In this document: in pieces, positions 28,801 through 53,941 of the stretch
Layout of the letters: each line of letters starts with the position of its first letter
Numbering within the stretch: position 1 is the stretch's first letter
Assembly: GCF_050320075.1 (NCBI RefSeq)
Contig: NZ_CP190018.1
DNA from: Escherichia coli
GTDB lineage: Bacteria > Pseudomonadota > Gammaproteobacteria > Enterobacterales > Enterobacteriaceae
Strand: one strand, 5' to 3'
DNA length: 64,000 nucleotides
Notes under the pieces: generated by a model
Told to the model about the DNA's origin: nothing
The model's database searches: none
Seen by the model: the letters and a program-made list of their open reading frames with translations, nothing else
Program-made: the position numbers and the translations under genes

Positions 28801-29205
<405 letters not shown>

Positions 29206-29531
29206 TGGCTTCTGATAATTCGATTGACCGTTGGCGGATGCGGCGCGAGTGCCTTATCCGCCCCACAACGCACCACAATCGTAGGCCTGAGAAGACGCAA
29301 CAGCGTCGCATCGGGCAATCAGCATCAAACAGTGCTACTCAAAACGTCAAACTACTTTCACCTAAAATACCCTTATCATCTGATATACAGTGAACACCTT
29401 ACCTGGCGGGAATTTCTTTGAATAACGGCCAACCGCCCCGCTTATTTGCGCATCTTTTGTCTCGATATACATTTTCTGACATCCTCATCCGCTATGCTAC
29501 AGGCACTAAAAATGGTTATTGAGGAGCAAAT

Positions 29532-30191
29532 ATGGCTAACTGGTTAAATCAACTGCAATCCCTGCTTGGGCAAAGCAGTTCTTCTGCCTCCTCGTCTGCG
29601 GATCAGGGATTGGGCAAACTTTTAGTGCCGGGCGCATTAGGCGGACTGGCTGGGCTGCTGGTCGCAAATAAATCAGCACGTAAACTTCTTACGAAATATG
29701 GCACCAACGCGTTGCTGGTTGGCGGCGGAGCGGTAGCGGGTACGGTGCTGTGGAATAAATACAAAGATAAAATTCGCGCGGCGCATCAGGACGAACCGCA
29801 GTTTGGCGCGCAAAGTACGCCGCTGGATGAGCGTACTGAACGTTTGATCCTTGCGCTGGTCTTTGCCGCTAAAAGTGATGGTCATATTGATGCCAAAGAA
29901 CGTGCGGCAATCGATCAGCAATTGCGTGAAGCCGGCGTGGAAGAGCAGGGGCGTGTACTCATTGAGCAGGCAATCGAACAACCGCTGGATCCACAACGCC
30001 TGGCTACCGGGGTCCGCAATGAAGAAGAGGCGCTGGAAATCTATTTCCTGAGCTGCGCGGCTATTGATATTGACCATTTTATGGAACGCAGTTACCTGAA
30101 TGCACTGGGTGACGCGCTGAAAATCCCCCAGGACGTTCGTGAAGGCATTGAACGCGATCTCGAACAACAAAAACGCACTTTGGCGGAATAA
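29532..30191 (+). CDS. yebE: DUF533-family inner-membrane protein YebE
   Basis: 219-aa [28 protein letters not shown]. Confidence 0.85.
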
Positions 30192-30354
30192 TTCCGCTCT
30201 CTGGATAGCCTGAAGTTGACTATTTCGGGCTATCCAGAACCGCACAGCCATTTGAGCAGGCTGATTTTCTCTGTCTGCATAACATTCGATATCCGCGCCA
30301 TTACCTGTCATCATGTGACTGCTCCCCGCCCTGTCGGGCGAGGCTTCCCACTTC

Positions 30355-31524
30355 TTAAGCCGCAACCGTCTGTGTGACGGATTTACGCTGGCCTCCATGG
30401 GCAGAAACGACGAGTCCCGCCGCTTGTAATTCCAGTATGCCCTTGCGTTTGATGTTGAGCGCCGCGTTGATATCGCGGTCATGTTCAACTCCACACTCTG
30501 GACACTGCCAGATGCGCTTATGTAATGGCATCTCCGACATTTTGTGACCGCAGCAGTGGCAGGTCTTCGAACTGGCGAACCATTGATCCAGTTTCACCAG
30601 ATGCACACCTTTCTCTGTTGCTTTGTATTCCAGTTTTGTGATGAATCCAGACCATCCAGCATCGCCTATCGCACGAGCCAGATGGTGATTTTTCATCATA
30701 TTTGCCATTTTCAATGTCTCGACAATTACCGCTTGGTTTTCGTCAACAATTGCGCGAGATAACTTGTGCTGGAAATCGGCACGGGCACCGGCTACCCGTT
30801 CGTGAACGGCTGCAAGTTGTATTCTGGCTTTGCGCCTGTTTGCGCTCCCTTTTTTCTTACGGGACAGTGCTTTCTGCTTCCGGCGCAGGTTGCGACTTGC
30901 ATTGATTAGGTGGCGGGGACTGGCAATTTTATTGCCGTCCGATTTGATGACAAAATGCGCCAGCCCCATATCCAGCCCTGTCACATTTGATATCAGTGCG
31001 GGCTTTGCCGGCGCTTCCATCCCGTCGTCACAGAGTAACGACGCGTAGTATTTCCCGGTTGCGCTGCGGCTCAACGTGATACTTTTCAGCATTCCCGTAA
31101 TTTCACGATGTAAACGCGCTTCAATCGGCAAGATTTTCGGTATTTTTATCGCAGCATCAAGGACTTTTATGCCAACACAATGGTAGCTCGATTGTCTGCC
31201 GTGTTTACTTTTAAAGGTAGGTTTACCTGCTTTCAGTTTCGGATTGAAAAAGTTAGAAAAAGCCACGTCGAGGTTAATTACCGCCTGCTGCAACGCAATA
31301 GAATCATATTCTTTAAGCCATCCATACCGGCGGGATTTCTTCGCCACTGCAAGCAGTGGTTTGAGGTCTTTACGCGGGTTTAAATTTACGCGGTGCCGCT
31401 GGTAAGAATGTTTCTTGATATGCAGAGCTTTGTTGTACGCAAAACGCACTGCACCGAACTGGGCGTTGATAAATTCAGCCTGTTCTGGTGTCGGGTAGAT
31501 GCGTACTTTTGTTGCTCTTAACAT
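30355..31524 (-). CDS. tnpB: IS200/IS605-family TnpB (OrfB; RuvC-like RNA-guided nuclease family)
   Basis: 389-aa ORF with an OrfB N-terminal HTH region, a RuvC-like core and a C-terminal zinc finger (CHCCGHKMSEMPLHKRIWQCPECGVEHDRDINAALNI). Confidence 0.85.
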   Translation of the reverse strand: MLRATKVRIYPTPEQAEFINAQFGAVRFAYNKALHIKKHSYQRHRVNLNPRKDLKPLLAVAKKSRRYGWLKEYDSIALQQAVINLDVAFSNFFNPKLKAGKPTFKSKHGRQSSYHCVGIKVLDAAIKIPKILPIEARLHREITGMLKSITLSRSATGKYYASLLCDDGMEAPAKPALISNVTGLDMGLAHFVIKSDGNKIASPRHLINASRNLRRKQKALSRKKKGSANRRKARIQLAAVHERVAGARADFQHKLSRAIVDENQAVIVETLKMANMMKNHHLARAIGDAGWSGFITKLEYKATEKGVHLVKLDQWFASSKTCHCCGHKMSEMPLHKRIWQCPECGVEHDRDINAALNIKRKGILELQAAGLVVSAHGGQRKSVTQTVAA

Positions 31525-31580
31525 AATCAGCGCTCATTGATATAATGCTTTTATTTTAACACTTTAGGTAAATATATCAA

Positions 31581-32006
31581 TTGAGTAATCATGATGATTT
31601 ACTGGCGGGATTTCTCCGCAAACGACACAGTGTCAGTAAGCTGGTTGTGCACCTTATTTTTACGACAAAGTATCGACGCAAACTATTCGACAGTCAGATG
31701 ATCGCTCAGTTGCGTGAGGCTTTTGGCTCCGCTGCGGCAAAGCTTGAATGCGAAATTATTGAGATGGACGGGGAGCCAGACCATGTACACCTGCTGGTTG
31801 CCTACCCGCCAAAACTGGCGGTCAGTGTGATGGTCAATAATTTAAAATCGGTATCATCACGTTTGCTACGCCAGCAGAACGCGCATTTACGCATGCAGAG
31901 TAAAACGGGGCTTTTGTGGTCGAGATCGTACTTTGTCTGTAGCACCGGAGAGGCAACGATTGAAACGCTCAGAGCCTACGTTCAGAGTCAGTCAACACCT
32001 GATTGA
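31581..32006 (+). CDS. tnpA: IS200/IS605-family TnpA (HuH Y1 transposase)
   Basis: 141-aa ORF with a TTG start; HuH motif HVHLLV and a catalytic-Tyr region WSRSYFVCSTG. Confidence 0.8.
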   Translation: MSNHDDLLAGFLRKRHSVSKLVVHLIFTTKYRRKLFDSQMIAQLREAFGSAAAKLECEIIEMDGEPDHVHLLVAYPPKLAVSVMVNNLKSVSSRLLRQQNAHLRMQSKTGLLWSRSYFVCSTGEATIETLRAYVQSQSTPD

Positions 32007-32135
32007 TCTTTAAAGCCCTGCGGGCTTTTCGCCTTATATCCCCGCCCGCATTGGGCGAGGGTTTACGGCGTTTTTCGCTAAGCAATGACTACCCTGTTTC
32101 GCTTGCATCTCCGGTGAGTTTTGCCACCCTTATAA

Positions 32136-34882
<2,747 letters not shown>

Positions 34883-37712: not shown

Positions 37713-37795
37713 TTTAAGCTGATGGCCACCGCGCTTTTTATTGACCATTTTGCACGCAAACTGGAAAACCTGGCGTCGTCATCTATTCTTAAAGG

Positions 37796-37898
37796 GCAAG
37801 GCAACTAAGCCTGCATTAATGCCAACTTTTAGCGCACGGCTCTCTCCCAAGAGCCATTTCCCTGGACCGAATACAGGAATCGTGTTCGGTCTCTTTTT
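37796..37898 (+). ncRNA. sdsR: small RNA SdsR (RyeB); the antisense sRNA RyeA (SraC) is expected to overlap on the - strand
   Basis: GCAAGGCAACTAAGCCTGCATTAATGCCAACTTTTAGCGCACGGCTCTCTCCCAAGAGCC...CGAATACAGGAATCGTGTTCGGTCTCTTTTT matches the recalled SdsR sequence, including its terminator hairpin and U-tail; located between yebY and pphA as expected. Confidence 0.7.
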
Positions 37899-38032
37899 AT
37901 CTGTTAAAAGCCAGAAGCATTCCCTTCGCTGACTTTATAGTCAACCATAACACACACTCTACTGTCTGAGTCCAGCGTTTTTTAACATTCTTGTTAAGAT
38001 TATGTGATCTTTAGCGCGGGAGGAAAATATTG

Positions 38033-52741: not shown

Positions 52742-53410
52742 TCCTTCCTCAATCTTGAGTAACCCCGTCGTTGAAGGGTTACTCAATTCATCCTGATTAT
52801 ACGCACTGTCATGGTGCAACTGCTTCAAATTAAAACTCTGGTCTGACTTCAAATAATTATCATATTATTTATTTGCGTAACGGGATATCAGAAAAAGATA
52901 TTTAGCCCATTAATTTATTAGGATGTTTACATCGGATTTGTGATTAAGCGTGGTATTATTTATTAGCGAAACGTTTCTCTCTTGATTTTTTTGCGCATTC
53001 ATCAATTTTTCTTATTTTAAATTTACAATACCTTTGGCGATTGACTTCTCTTTGGGGTGATCGATAGCCGTTAACTGACTGTTTTATGAGAAAAATTGAT
53101 ATAACTTTTTATTCATTGCATAGCAGAAAATGTGATATTGCACGCACTATGTAATAACTTCTCCCACTGGCCTGGAACAACTGAACTTATTGAACTATGT
53201 TAGAAAATACGTCAGTTTAAGTATCTGCCTGAACTGGCAAGGTTAAGCACAATGATATATCGGCGCGTATTCCGTTGCATAAGTGTGCAAAAAAAGTGGA
53301 AGACGTATCGAGATTTGTGCGTCTGATCGAGACATGTTTAAAAATGGCTTGCCATAATTAACGTTGTATGTGATAACAGATTTCGGGTTAAACGAGGTAC
53401 AGTTCTGTTT

Positions 53411-53554
53411 ATGTGTGGCATTTTCAGTAAAGAAGTCCTGAGTAAACACGTTGACGTTGAATACCGCTTCTCTGCCGAGCCTTATATTGGTGCCTCATGC
53501 AGTAATGTGTCAGTTTTATCTATGTTATGCCTGCGGGCGAAGAAAACAATCTAA
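53411..53554 (+). CDS. yobF: small protein YobF (47 aa)
   Basis: [47 protein letters not shown], 13 bp upstream of cspC; too short for the ORF track. Confidence 0.75.
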
Positions 53555-53566
53555 GGAATTTTTCAA

Positions 53567-53776
53567 ATGGCAAAGATTAAAGGTCAGGTTAAGTGGTTCA
53601 ACGAGTCTAAAGGTTTTGGCTTCATTACTCCGGCTGATGGCAGCAAAGACGTGTTCGTACACTTCTCTGCAATCCAGGGTAATGGTTTCAAAACTCTGGC
53701 TGAAGGTCAGAACGTTGAGTTCGAAATTCAGGACGGTCAGAAAGGTCCGGCAGCTGTTAACGTAACAGCTATCTGA
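53567..53776 (+). CDS. cspC: cold-shock-family protein CspC
   Basis: [37 protein letters not shown]. Confidence 0.95.
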
Positions 53777-53822
53777 TCGAATCCACTGATCTGAAGTGTG
53801 AATACGCTTCAATCTCGCTATA

Positions 53823-53850
53823 AAGCCTCGTCGAATGCGAGGCTTTTTAC
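53823..53850 (+). terminator. rho-independent terminator after cspC
   Basis: AAAGCCTCG-TCGAATG-CGAGGCTTTTT. Confidence 0.6.
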
Positions 53851-53941
53851 TTTGCTTTATCTTCGCTCCAGTCGTTCGGATATTTGCCCGCCGCGTGATT
53901 CGCGTTACACTTGCGGCCTTTAGTATCCTGCCGGAGTTGTC

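Follow-up and report, generated by a model that had tools for sequence, protein, structure and literature searches.

IS605 and IS608 of Helicobacter pylori encode a Y1 HUH transposase, carry subterminal hairpins and insert 3' of a tetranucleotide without target duplication. The target of IS608 is TTAC, and its tetranucleotides AAAG and GAAT relate to TTAC and TCAA. In the ISGst elements, most copies of which are tnpB-only, TnpA and TnpB share the LE-side motif, the RE flank supplies the guide, and the nuclease targets the donor joint or empty allele (PMC10055086). The helix layout of the omega-RNA of ISDra2 from Deinococcus radiodurans has been solved by cryo-EM (PMC10097598). In this study, we compared an element lying between ptrB and yebE of Escherichia coli with these systems. 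The analysed stretch, hereafter the window, comprises 64,000 nucleotides of contig NZ_CP190018.1 (NCBI RefSeq assembly GCF_050320075.1).

An initial annotation had placed an intact IS200/IS605-family element at 30290-32100 and had proposed a comparison with an IS-free yebE-ptrB region. Alignment to the yebE-ptrB intergenic region of K-12 MG1655 showed that the occupied site is longer than the empty one by exactly 1,763 bp; the alignment was unambiguous and revealed no duplication. The empty site of K-12 reads ...CCTGTCATCAT up to the insertion point and CTAAGCAATGAC... from there on. This alignment fixed the element at 30315-32077. The element was present in the annotated span, well beyond chance, but the limits given for it were about 25 nt too wide on each side. 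The element and its target motif are as follows.

30315..32077, minus strand (tnpB sense, used as the top strand): complete ISEc46 element, 1,763 bp, with LE at 32077 and RE at 30315
32078..32081, minus strand: target motif and predicted TAM 5'-TTAG-3', directly 5' of LE (CTTAG if 32082 is counted)

As is characteristic of IS200/IS605 elements, the insertion lies 3' of a short specific motif (TTAG) without target-site duplication. The element has no terminal inverted repeats and carries subterminal imperfect palindromes at both ends on one strand. The subterminal hairpins, the absence of target duplication and the insertion 3' of a tetranucleotide are common to ISEc46, IS605 and IS608. RefSeq names the element ISEc46, IS200/IS605 family, which is the ISfinder name as used in RefSeq/PGAP annotation. 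Its coding sequences are labelled 'IS200/IS605-like element ISEc46 family transposase' and 'RNA-guided endonuclease InsQ/TnpB family protein'. The RefSeq-labelled ISEc46 sequences are 99.3-100% identical, and hundreds of complete E. coli genomes have them at the yebE-ptrB site; those of CFSAN061763 and of the ST38-type isolate 28Eco12 are 100% identical. Copies in other genomes are likewise 1,763 bp long. The element is ISEc46 itself, with no difference at the DNA level. ISEc46 is publicly annotated without an ncRNA, IS boundaries or a TAM. We found no paper on the ISEc46 omega-RNA, its TAM or the activity of its TnpB, and the ISEc46 literature that we found consisted of mobile-element inventories only.

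The two proteins of the element were then compared with profile and structure collections.

31581..32006, plus strand: tnpA, Y1 HUH transposase, 141 aa, with a TTG start as in RefSeq (Pfam, NCBIfam and IS608 TnpA alignment)
30355..31524, minus strand: tnpB, predicted RNA-guided nuclease, 389 aa (Pfam, NCBIfam and PDB match)

TnpA covered the whole Pfam Y1_Tnp profile (positions 1-121 of 121, E = 5e-39) and scored 141.8 bits against NCBIfam transpos_IS200, for which the cut-off is 55. The sequence is only distantly similar to that of IS608 TnpA (E = 5e-19), but both are Y1 HUH transposases with equivalent catalytic residues. In the alignment to IS608 TnpA (2a6m), H68/H70, Y133 and Q137 corresponded to H64/H66, Y127 and Q131. 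TnpB matched three Pfam domains (HTH_OrfB_IS605, OrfB_IS605 and Cas12f1-like_TNB) and scored 341 bits against NCBIfam guided_TnpB (cut-off 100). The stricter NCBIfam model IS200_TnpB (NF038281) gave 382.9 bits, less than its cut-off of 425. That model is of the 'exception' type and serves naming, and TnpB easily passed the broader subfamily one, so this miss touches naming only and not family membership. The closest natural solved relative of TnpB was ISDra2 TnpB (8bf8, 8exa and 8h1j; E = 4e-73, residues 4-380), and the D-E-D triad and zinc finger are conserved in both. The RuvC residues D185/E269/D351 correspond to D191/E278/D361 of ISDra2, and the zinc-finger (TNB) cysteines C322/C325 and C341/C344 are present.

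The interpretation given in the initial annotation was upheld wherever it could be checked. The assignment to the IS200/IS605 family is confirmed by the Pfam/NCBIfam transposase matches, the ends and the RefSeq name ISEc46. Both proteins had been described as full length; the complete Y1_Tnp profile is covered in TnpA with its catalytic residues intact, and the 389-aa ORF of TnpB contains all three Pfam domains. Mutation of the RuvC residues had been raised as evidence that would count against the proposal, and D185, E269 and D351 were all found intact. The system had also been called known rather than novel, which was correct, as the RefSeq names ISEc46 and InsQ/TnpB were already attached to the two coding sequences.

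tnpA and tnpB are transcribed divergently, as in IS605, with a 56-bp spacer between them, whereas the two genes are co-directional in ISDra2. The TTG start of tnpA sits in a weak ribosome-binding context. Promoter-like sites were located by consensus scan only.

31518..31580: divergent promoter-like sites, spanning the tnpB 5' end and the tnpA-tnpB spacer
31518-31546, plus strand: promoter-like site of tnpA, TTAACA-17-TATAAT, 11/12 consensus matches
31580-31553, minus strand: promoter-like site for tnpB and the omega-RNA precursor, TTGATA-16-TAAAAT, 10/12 consensus matches

Both sites have an upstream TG. A sequence scan downstream of RE found no intrinsic terminator.

An omega-RNA had been expected on the minus strand at 30290-30480, at the 3' end of tnpB, with its guide taken from the flank next to yebE. 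We therefore examined this region using an alignment of 65 relatives, and the following features were predicted.

30315..30425, minus strand: predicted omega-RNA scaffold, about 111 nt (position -1 is 30315; the covariance-model match reaches 30432)
30419-30425 / 30405-30411, minus strand: stem S1
30414-30416 with 30317-30319, minus strand: pseudoknot of GAC in the stem-1 loop with GUC
30397-30401 / 30347-30351, minus strand: stem S2
30387-30393 / 30358-30363, minus strand: stem S3a
30376-30380 / 30366-30370, minus strand: stem S3b
30336-30343 / 30324-30331, minus strand: stem S4
30299..30314, minus strand, read 30314->30299: predicted 16-nt guide AUGAUGACAGGUAAUG, in the yebE-side flank immediately 3' of the RE boundary

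RNAalifold and pair counts in the 65 relatives placed five helices in the last ~111-118 nt before the RE boundary, and the last helix ends 9 nt short of it. Compensatory changes were found in 17 of the 31 nested pairs, and 97.9% of cells were paired, compared with 35-57% when the partners were slid. None of 500 shuffled controls was as good as the real structure. Synonymous variation falls from about codon 365, that is, over the last ~25 codons of tnpB. Third-position entropy decreased from ~1.1 bits to 0.60 and 0.45 bits in codons 365-389, with no drop in amino-acid entropy. G-U pairs were frequent in the helices; pairs 54:70 and 57:67 were mostly G-U, and 139:169 was mostly U-G. A single-sequence fold of 30299-30480 (z = -2.1) gave a partly different structure and was set aside for the comparative data.

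A covariance model, R1, was built from the relatives with the ISDra2-like locus left out of training. The model scored 133.5 bits at the ISEc46 scaffold. ISDra2 itself was absent from the plasmid collection searched, which held only ~82%-identical relatives, and a Deinococcus aquaticus copy was used instead. R1 found this untrained ISDra2-like locus (L089, 1802-1922) with 33.9 bits and E = 6e-6. The match was full length (model positions 1-118) and ended at the RE boundary of that locus. The order of elements in the predicted ISEc46 omega-RNA is as in ISDra2, with helices within 1-5 nt and stems 2-4 within 1-3 nt. S2 lies at -87..-83/-37..-33 in ISEc46 and at -84..-81/-35..-32 in ISDra2, S3a at -79..-73/-49..-44 and -77..-71/-48..-42, and the S4 tetraloop at -21..-18 and -20..-17, respectively (PMC10097598). 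The ISEc46 RNA is predicted from sequence, whereas the ISDra2 RNA has been solved experimentally.

The predicted 3-nt pseudoknot, in which the S1 loop pairs with -5..-3, is GAC:GUC in ISEc46 and GAA:UUC in ISDra2. Within the family, GAC (-102..-100) and GUC (-5..-3) were paired in 97.3% of cells with no double changes, and a U-U mismatch was present in 5 of 62 sequences. As these 3 bp are nearly invariant, the family gives the pseudoknot no internal covariation support. The pair at -5 is A-U in Deinococcus and C-G in ISEc46; this one change fits the pseudoknot but stands alone. RNAalifold also proposed a nested 3-bp pairing of -127..-125 with -5..-3. We rejected this pairing because it does not vary and falls within a conserved Lys-Gly codon pair, and because the ISDra2 counterpart is the stem-1-loop pseudoknot, for which GAC is available.

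A scan of 29000-33500 against Rfam 15 gave no match at E <= 1 within 30315-32077, and a whole-window scan gave no match at the gathering threshold in the IS. The only Rfam matches nearby were weak REP/naRNA4-like ones outside the IS. Computational support for the predicted omega-RNA is good. The expectation of a structured RNA at the tnpB 3' end was borne out: the helices covary, synonymous variation is suppressed there, and the predicted RNA is homologous to the omega-RNA solved for ISDra2. The region 30290-30480 holds both the scaffold (30315 to ~30425) and the guide (30299-30314), and AUGAUGACAGGUAAUG follows directly after the RE boundary on the yebE side, as had been claimed. The description of the function as unannotated holds for the RNA only, which matches no Rfam family and is absent from the RefSeq annotation.

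The motifs at the two ends of the element are as follows.

32040..32060, minus strand: LE subterminal hairpin CCTCGCCC-AATGC-GGGCGGGG, read from the sequence and conserved across relatives
30324..30343, minus strand: RE subterminal hairpin CCUCGCCC-GACA-GGGCGGGG, a covarying helix identical with S4
30315..30318, minus strand: transposon-encoded motif 5'-TCAC-3' at the RE cleavage site (cleavage after GTCAC), conserved in relatives

TTAG was found 5' of LE at three independent E. coli sites, including a second chromosomal site (L003) and a plasmid tnpB-only copy (L090). Of 80 related loci fetched, LE could be located in 62, and nearly all of these likewise have TTAG before LE. The predicted TAM of ISEc46 differs from TTGAT in ISDra2 and from the ISGst TAM, and the target differs from TTAC in IS608. 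The tetranucleotides AAAC and GAAG lie 5' of the LE and RE hairpins and presumably relate to TTAG and TCAC as in IS608. AAAC (32061-32064, just 5' of the LE hairpin) is likely to be the TnpA 'DNA guide' for TTAG, by analogy with IS608 and ISGst2 (PMC10055086). The RE hairpin showed compensatory changes in three of its eight pairs in the alignment of relatives, and its position is that of stem 4 and the tetraloop in ISDra2. This hairpin doubles as the TnpA recognition hairpin in ssDNA and as stem 4 of the predicted omega-RNA. The RE terminus ...GGGGAGCAGTCAC was present in almost all relatives, and the flanks were completely divergent right after it. The RE motif GTCAC resembles the TEM of ISGst2, TTCAC (PMC10055086). 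Because TCAC differs from the TAM, the occupied site is not a predicted TnpB target. When the window was searched for the TAM followed by the target, the only match was the RE junction, with three mismatches, all within the TAM.

The guide length of 16 nt was borrowed from ISDra2 (PMC10097598). In the empty allele, the guide match directly follows CTTAG, and the uninterrupted 60-nt joint of this allele was found in 5,022 of 5,426 genomes. ISEc46 and the ISGst elements have a common logic, in which TnpA and TnpB share the LE-side motif and the RE flank serves as the guide, while the ISEc46 copy has its own tnpA. We conclude, with a probability of roughly 0.85, that 30315-32077 of the window is an intact, autonomous ISEc46 inserted 3' of TTAG between ptrB and yebE, whose TnpB and predicted omega-RNA would target the empty site. 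The mechanism proposed here draws on PMC10097598 and PMC10055086, and in part on PMC10278001. By inference from ISDra2 and ISGst, the tnpB transcript would read through RE into the flank. TnpB would bind the 3' part of this transcript and trim it to a ~111-116-nt scaffold with the 16-nt guide, and the ribonucleoprotein would cut DNA in which 5'-TTAG is followed by the guide sequence. The DNA cut in this way would be the scarless donor joint left after TnpA excision, or the empty yebE-ptrB allele. The occupied site would be safe because TCAC, not TTAG, stands before the guide-matching sequence.

IS200/IS605 transposition uses ssDNA hairpins at both ends (PMC10055086), and the covarying helices could be ssDNA structures for TnpA excision and integration, with no RNA and no guide RNA. 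The RE hairpin (S4), which has sequence in common with the LE hairpin, certainly serves TnpA, and DNA and RNA pairing are indistinguishable by covariation alone. However, TnpA substrates require only a subterminal hairpin and an adjacent guide tetranucleotide, whereas S1-S3 are found 44-111 nt in from the end and lack an LE counterpart. G-U pairs are stable in RNA, but G-T pairs are weak in DNA and become A-C mismatches on the complementary strand. The layout is also that of the ISDra2 omega-RNA, which was solved as RNA by cryo-EM, and R1 detects the ISDra2-like locus. An exclusive role of these helices in ssDNA is highly improbable on this evidence. A role of TnpB in host regulation was also considered, since domesticated TnpB relatives are reportedly known in Enterobacteriaceae and this copy is stably fixed beside host genes. 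In that case, TnpB would be a TldR-like, nuclease-independent regulator, and its flank-derived guide would repress a host gene. A TldR was taken to be a protein that has lost its RuvC residues, no longer lies with tnpA between IS ends, and has a conserved guide directed at a host promoter. In ISEc46, neither the RuvC triad nor the zinc finger is damaged, and tnpB still lies beside tnpA in an element whose ends are intact. The guide is whatever flank follows RE, different at every insertion, and the sole TAM and target match in the window is the RE junction itself. A TldR-like function is thus scarcely credible.

The distribution of the element bears on whether it is still active. ISEc46 was found at the yebE-ptrB site in ~450 of 5,426 complete E. 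coli genomes, and at least 80% of the IS was present in 455 of the 5,426. Five of six chromosomal matches sampled were at this site, and the only other chromosomal site among the sampled E. coli matches was an IclR-family gene adjoining yfaY. Because only two chromosomal sites occur among the sampled matches, current transposition activity may be very low. The copy could accordingly be a fixed, effectively immobile relic whose TnpB and omega-RNA are silent or non-functional in E. coli; the TTG start of tnpA in its weak context and promoter calls that are consensus matches only would fit this. On the other hand, six yebE-ptrB copies compared were 99.3-100% identical, and the ORFs, catalytic residues, ends and RNA structure were kept in all of them. 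These copies lie in different ptrB/yebE backgrounds, and the IS differs among them by 0.06-0.74% while the 800-bp flanks differ by 0.25-1.87%, unlike a neutrally decaying relic. Plasmids carry a tnpB-only derivative and several remnants at other sites, which indicates that the family has moved within Enterobacteriaceae. We consider a relic improbable, and an intact, autonomous ISEc46 remains the preferred reading.

The empty allele, TTAG-ATGATGACAGGTAATG, is carried by ~92% of genomes. After DNA exchange, TnpB and its omega-RNA could cut this allele, and repair could copy the IS into it. The yebE-ptrB copy might then pass from one E. coli lineage to another as a gene drive does, beyond vertical inheritance. 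Homing of this kind would explain why the IS is less diverged than its flanks in the six copies. Low IS divergence may also be caused by stronger purifying selection on the gene-dense IS, by short recombination tracts or by sampling noise, as only 800 bp of flank were compared. Spread by homing is a tentative and rather unlikely suggestion.

ISEc46 is a catalogued element, RefSeq already describes its TnpB as an RNA-guided endonuclease, and how TnpB works with an omega-RNA is well understood. All that is newly defined here is the extent of the predicted RNA and the predicted TAM of ISEc46, together with exact IS boundaries for annotation. The finding is correct but ordinary; it has little weight as a discovery, and the gain is mainly in annotation. 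The predicted scaffold and guide are missed by Rfam and by genome annotation, and TTAG is the predicted TAM of a TnpB that occurs naturally in E. coli. With the boundaries, the predicted omega-RNA and the TAM defined, experiments on retention or homing in this host would be easy to design.

DNA identical to the element, with yebE and ptrB on either side, is labelled 'IS200/IS605-like element ISEc46 family transposase' and 'RNA-guided endonuclease InsQ/TnpB family protein' in a megablast search of 5,426 complete E. coli genomes. The element is the catalogued IS ISEc46; its system is a textbook one, as the initial annotation had said in calling it known and not novel. The genes concerned are as follows.

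29532-30191, plus strand: yebE, neighbour on one side
30355-31524, minus strand: tnpB ORF, 389 aa, matching Pfam HTH_OrfB_IS605, OrfB_IS605 and Cas12f1-like_TNB
31581-32006, plus strand: tnpA ORF, 141 aa, divergent from tnpB, covering the full Y1_Tnp profile
32163-34223, plus strand: ptrB, neighbour on the other side

Among NCBIfam models, TnpB scored 341 bits with guided_TnpB (cut-off 100) and TnpA 141.8 bits with transpos_IS200 (cut-off 55); TnpB was below the cut-off of the stricter naming model IS200_TnpB (382.9 vs 425). Residues 4-380 of TnpB aligned to the solved TnpB of ISDra2, a Deinococcus radiodurans IS (8bf8/8exa/8h1j, E = 4e-73). D185, E269 and D351 occupied the columns of the catalytic ISDra2 residues D191, E278 and D361; therefore, the RuvC residues are intact, and the mutations that the initial annotation had named as counting against it are absent. 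The cysteine pairs C322/C325 and C341/C344 were present. In TnpA, H68/H70, Y133 and Q137 aligned with H64/H66, Y127 and Q131 of Helicobacter pylori IS608 TnpA (2a6m).

The yebE-ptrB site is empty in K-12 MG1655, which aligned to the window in two clean blocks joining at ...CCTGTCATCAT|CTAAGCAATGAC... This places the insertion at 30315-32077 (1,763 bp), with neither target duplication nor junction ambiguity. The initial annotation was right about the presence of an element, but its extent, 30290-32100, ran some 25 nt past each end. On the tnpB-sense (minus) strand, from left end (LE, 32077) to right end (RE, 30315), the whole reads 5'-...TGCTTAG | CGAAAAACGCCGTAAA-CCCTCGCCC-AATGC-GGGCGGGG ... 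CCTCGCCC-GACA-GGGCGGGG-AGCAGTCAC | ATGATGACAGGTAATG...-3', where CCCTCGCCC-AATGC-GGGCGGGG is the LE hairpin and CCTCGCCC-GACA-GGGCGGGG the RE hairpin. A scan with one genome per species gave 80 related loci (TnpB identity 63-99%) from Photorhabdus, Serratia, Rahnella, Idiomarina, Halomonas-group bacteria and others. TTAG directly preceded LE in nearly all of the 62 relatives with LE located; RE ended in ...AGTCAC, and the flanks beyond were unrelated. Judged from sequence, the target motif of ISEc46 is 5'-TTAG and the motif at the RE-internal cleavage site is TCAC. By family logic, 5'-TTAG is also the predicted TnpB target motif (TAM). This layout agrees with the scheme of the ISGst elements, whose transposon-encoded motif is TTCAC.

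For 65 distinct relatives, we aligned the final 160 nt before the RE boundary. The RNAalifold consensus contained 34 pairs, 17 of them with compensatory changes. The 31 nested pairs showed standard pairing in 97.9% of cells, compared with 35-57% when partners were slid by 1-3 columns, and double changes in 204 cells vs 56.5 ± 5.0 in shuffles. None of 500 shuffles matched the observed values, and the result was repeated on a trimmed alignment. Four helices lie wholly or partly within the tnpB ORF. We aligned 50 homologues by codon and took the entropy of third positions for the majority amino acid; it averaged ~1.1 bits over most of tnpB, and was 0.60 in codons 365-377 and 0.45 in codons 378-389; amino-acid entropy in codons 365-389 showed no drop (0.74-1.09 bits). 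The fall started near codon 366, ~-113 from the RE end, where the helices start. A covariance model made from the trimmed alignment had exactly one match in the 64-kb window (30315-30432, minus strand, 133.5 bits), as expected since this sequence is in its training set. It also matched a Deinococcus locus outside that set over its full length (33.9 bits, E = 6e-6), stopping at the inferred RE boundary. No Rfam family matched the region. The predicted helices, numbered with -1 at 30315, are listed here.

S1, minus strand: -111..-105 with -97..-91
S2, minus strand: -87..-83 with -37..-33
S3a, minus strand: -79..-73 with -49..-44
S3b, minus strand: -66..-62 with -56..-52
S4, minus strand: the RE hairpin, -29..-22 with -17..-10, tetraloop -21..-18

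In the 116-nt ISDra2 omega-RNA scaffold solved by cryo-EM, stem 1 pairs -116..-111 with -91..-86, stem 2 -84..-81 with -35..-32 and stem 3a -77..-71 with -48..-42; stem 3b spans -70..-49, the stem 4 tetraloop is -20..-17, and a pseudoknot joins -5..-3 to -105..-103 (PMC10097598). The almost invariant stem-1 loop GAC of ISEc46 (-102..-100) is able to pair with GUC (-5..-3), with too little variation within the family to show covariation; at the equivalent place in the Deinococcus aquaticus ISDra2-like copy, GGA pairs with UUC. Four independent lines of computational evidence (covariation, coding constraint, architecture and homology search) thus support a predicted omega-RNA from the tnpB 3' end and RE, where the initial annotation had expected one.

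It is unlikely that the helices serve solely as single-stranded DNA. The subterminal hairpins suffice for TnpA, S1-S3 are without counterpart at LE, and the helix layout matches that of the solved ISDra2 RNA. Since G-U pairs are frequent in the helices, RNA is favoured over DNA pairing. The catalytic triad is intact, and tnpA and both IS ends are present, which excludes a TldR-like domesticated regulator.

A query with the IS alone found at least 80% of it in 455 of the 5,426 genomes. Five of six sampled chromosomal copies were at yebE-ptrB; the sixth, preceded by ...TCTTAG, breaks an IclR-family regulator gene adjoining yfaY. That just two chromosomal sites occur among the sampled matches would fit a silent relic, but every functional feature is kept and divergence is lower inside the IS than in its flanks; we regard this reading as rather unlikely. 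Six copies at yebE-ptrB in differing allele backgrounds (L004-L008 against window 29915-32477) differed by 0.06-0.74% in the IS vs 0.25-1.87% in 800 bp flanks (L006 vs L008: 0.11% vs 1.87%). Homing or spread by recombination may explain the difference; so may stronger selection on the IS, or noise. The difference is thin evidence for TnpB-driven homing among E. coli lineages, which we regard as doubtful.

A derivative without tnpA (LE-tnpB-RE), preceded by ...GTTTAG, lies on E. coli plasmid pBS15R-A_1 (L090, 1418-2748, ~80% identity to ISEc46). In it, ~120 nt of LE and leader are fused straight to tnpB and RE, with its own flank as putative guide, AAACTGACCATTAAAG; similar tnpB-only matches occur on hundreds of Escherichia and Salmonella plasmids. 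The 99% identical ISEc46 copy in a MAG labelled Collinsella sp. (L009) comes with the yebE-ptrB flanks of E. coli, and the contig therefore probably entered the bin as E. coli contamination. A MAG labelled Candidatus Paceibacterota, an unexpected taxon, held a copy with 88% identical TnpB (L011). In several Photorhabdus copies (L013, L019, L026, L031, L032, L040, L050), the LE or RE hairpin was split at its loop by foreign sequence, …GGGTGTCGCAAAAGG… or its complement, which suggests a second mobile element targeting these hairpins.

Promoter-like sites over the tnpB 5' end and the 56-bp tnpA-tnpB spacer, consensus matches only, could drive both genes. If ISEc46 works as ISDra2 and the ISGst elements do, the tnpB transcript would run on through RE, and its 3' portion would be bound and trimmed by TnpB (PMC10278001). 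The guide would be the 16 nt directly past the RE boundary, AUGAUGACAGGUAAUG (30314->30299, minus strand), in the yebE-side flank from which the initial annotation had it read, and the complex would cut DNA with that sequence after TTAG. The K-12 empty allele reads CTTAG|ATGATGACAGGTAATG; TTAG with guide-matching sequence is arranged so only in the empty allele or excision donor joint, and the uninterrupted 60-nt joint was found in 5,022 of 5,426 genomes. At the occupied locus, GTCAC precedes the guide-matching sequence. Because this sole near-match in the window has 3 mismatches, all in the TAM, ISEc46 would not target itself. A 39-nt near-perfect inverted repeat (30200-30238, TCTGGATAGCC...GGCTATCCAGA) closely follows the yebE stop codon; on the minus strand it lies 76-115 nt downstream from RE. 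It has a T-run on neither strand, and might affect where transcripts reading through from the IS have their 3' end.

In two remnants on IncI-type plasmids, which lie between pilV and a truncated rci gene (L091 1501-1798, L092 1501-1666), just the final 126-258 nt of tnpB are left, but the predicted omega-RNA scaffold is complete (128-136 bits with the covariance model). Both remnants have the same flank, TATTTGGATATCAAAC, adjoining the pilV shufflon, and are predicted orphan guide-RNA genes without a nuclease in cis. A solitary 38-nt RE hairpin and tail, GGGAAGCCTCGCCCGACAGGGCGGGGAGCAGTCAC, 100% identical to ISEc46, lies near hokD on plasmid pL73-2 (L093, 1501-1538), with no adjoining tnpB in this one fetched locus; it recurs on many other plasmids, and nothing is annotated beneath these matches. 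Between yebF and yebE (29187-29335), two REP-like repeats gave sub-threshold Rfam naRNA4 matches (32.5 and 28.3 bits vs gathering score 59.5). Known RNAs elsewhere in the window are these.

37758-37902: SraC/RyeA (minus strand) and SdsR/RyeB (plus strand), an overlapping sRNA pair
53391-53851: cspA-type thermoregulator leader

We found no paper on the ends, TAM or omega-RNA of ISEc46. The analysis adds, for this element, the exact position of both ends, the prediction of TTAG as TAM, and a predicted omega-RNA scaffold and guide that are absent from annotation and Rfam.
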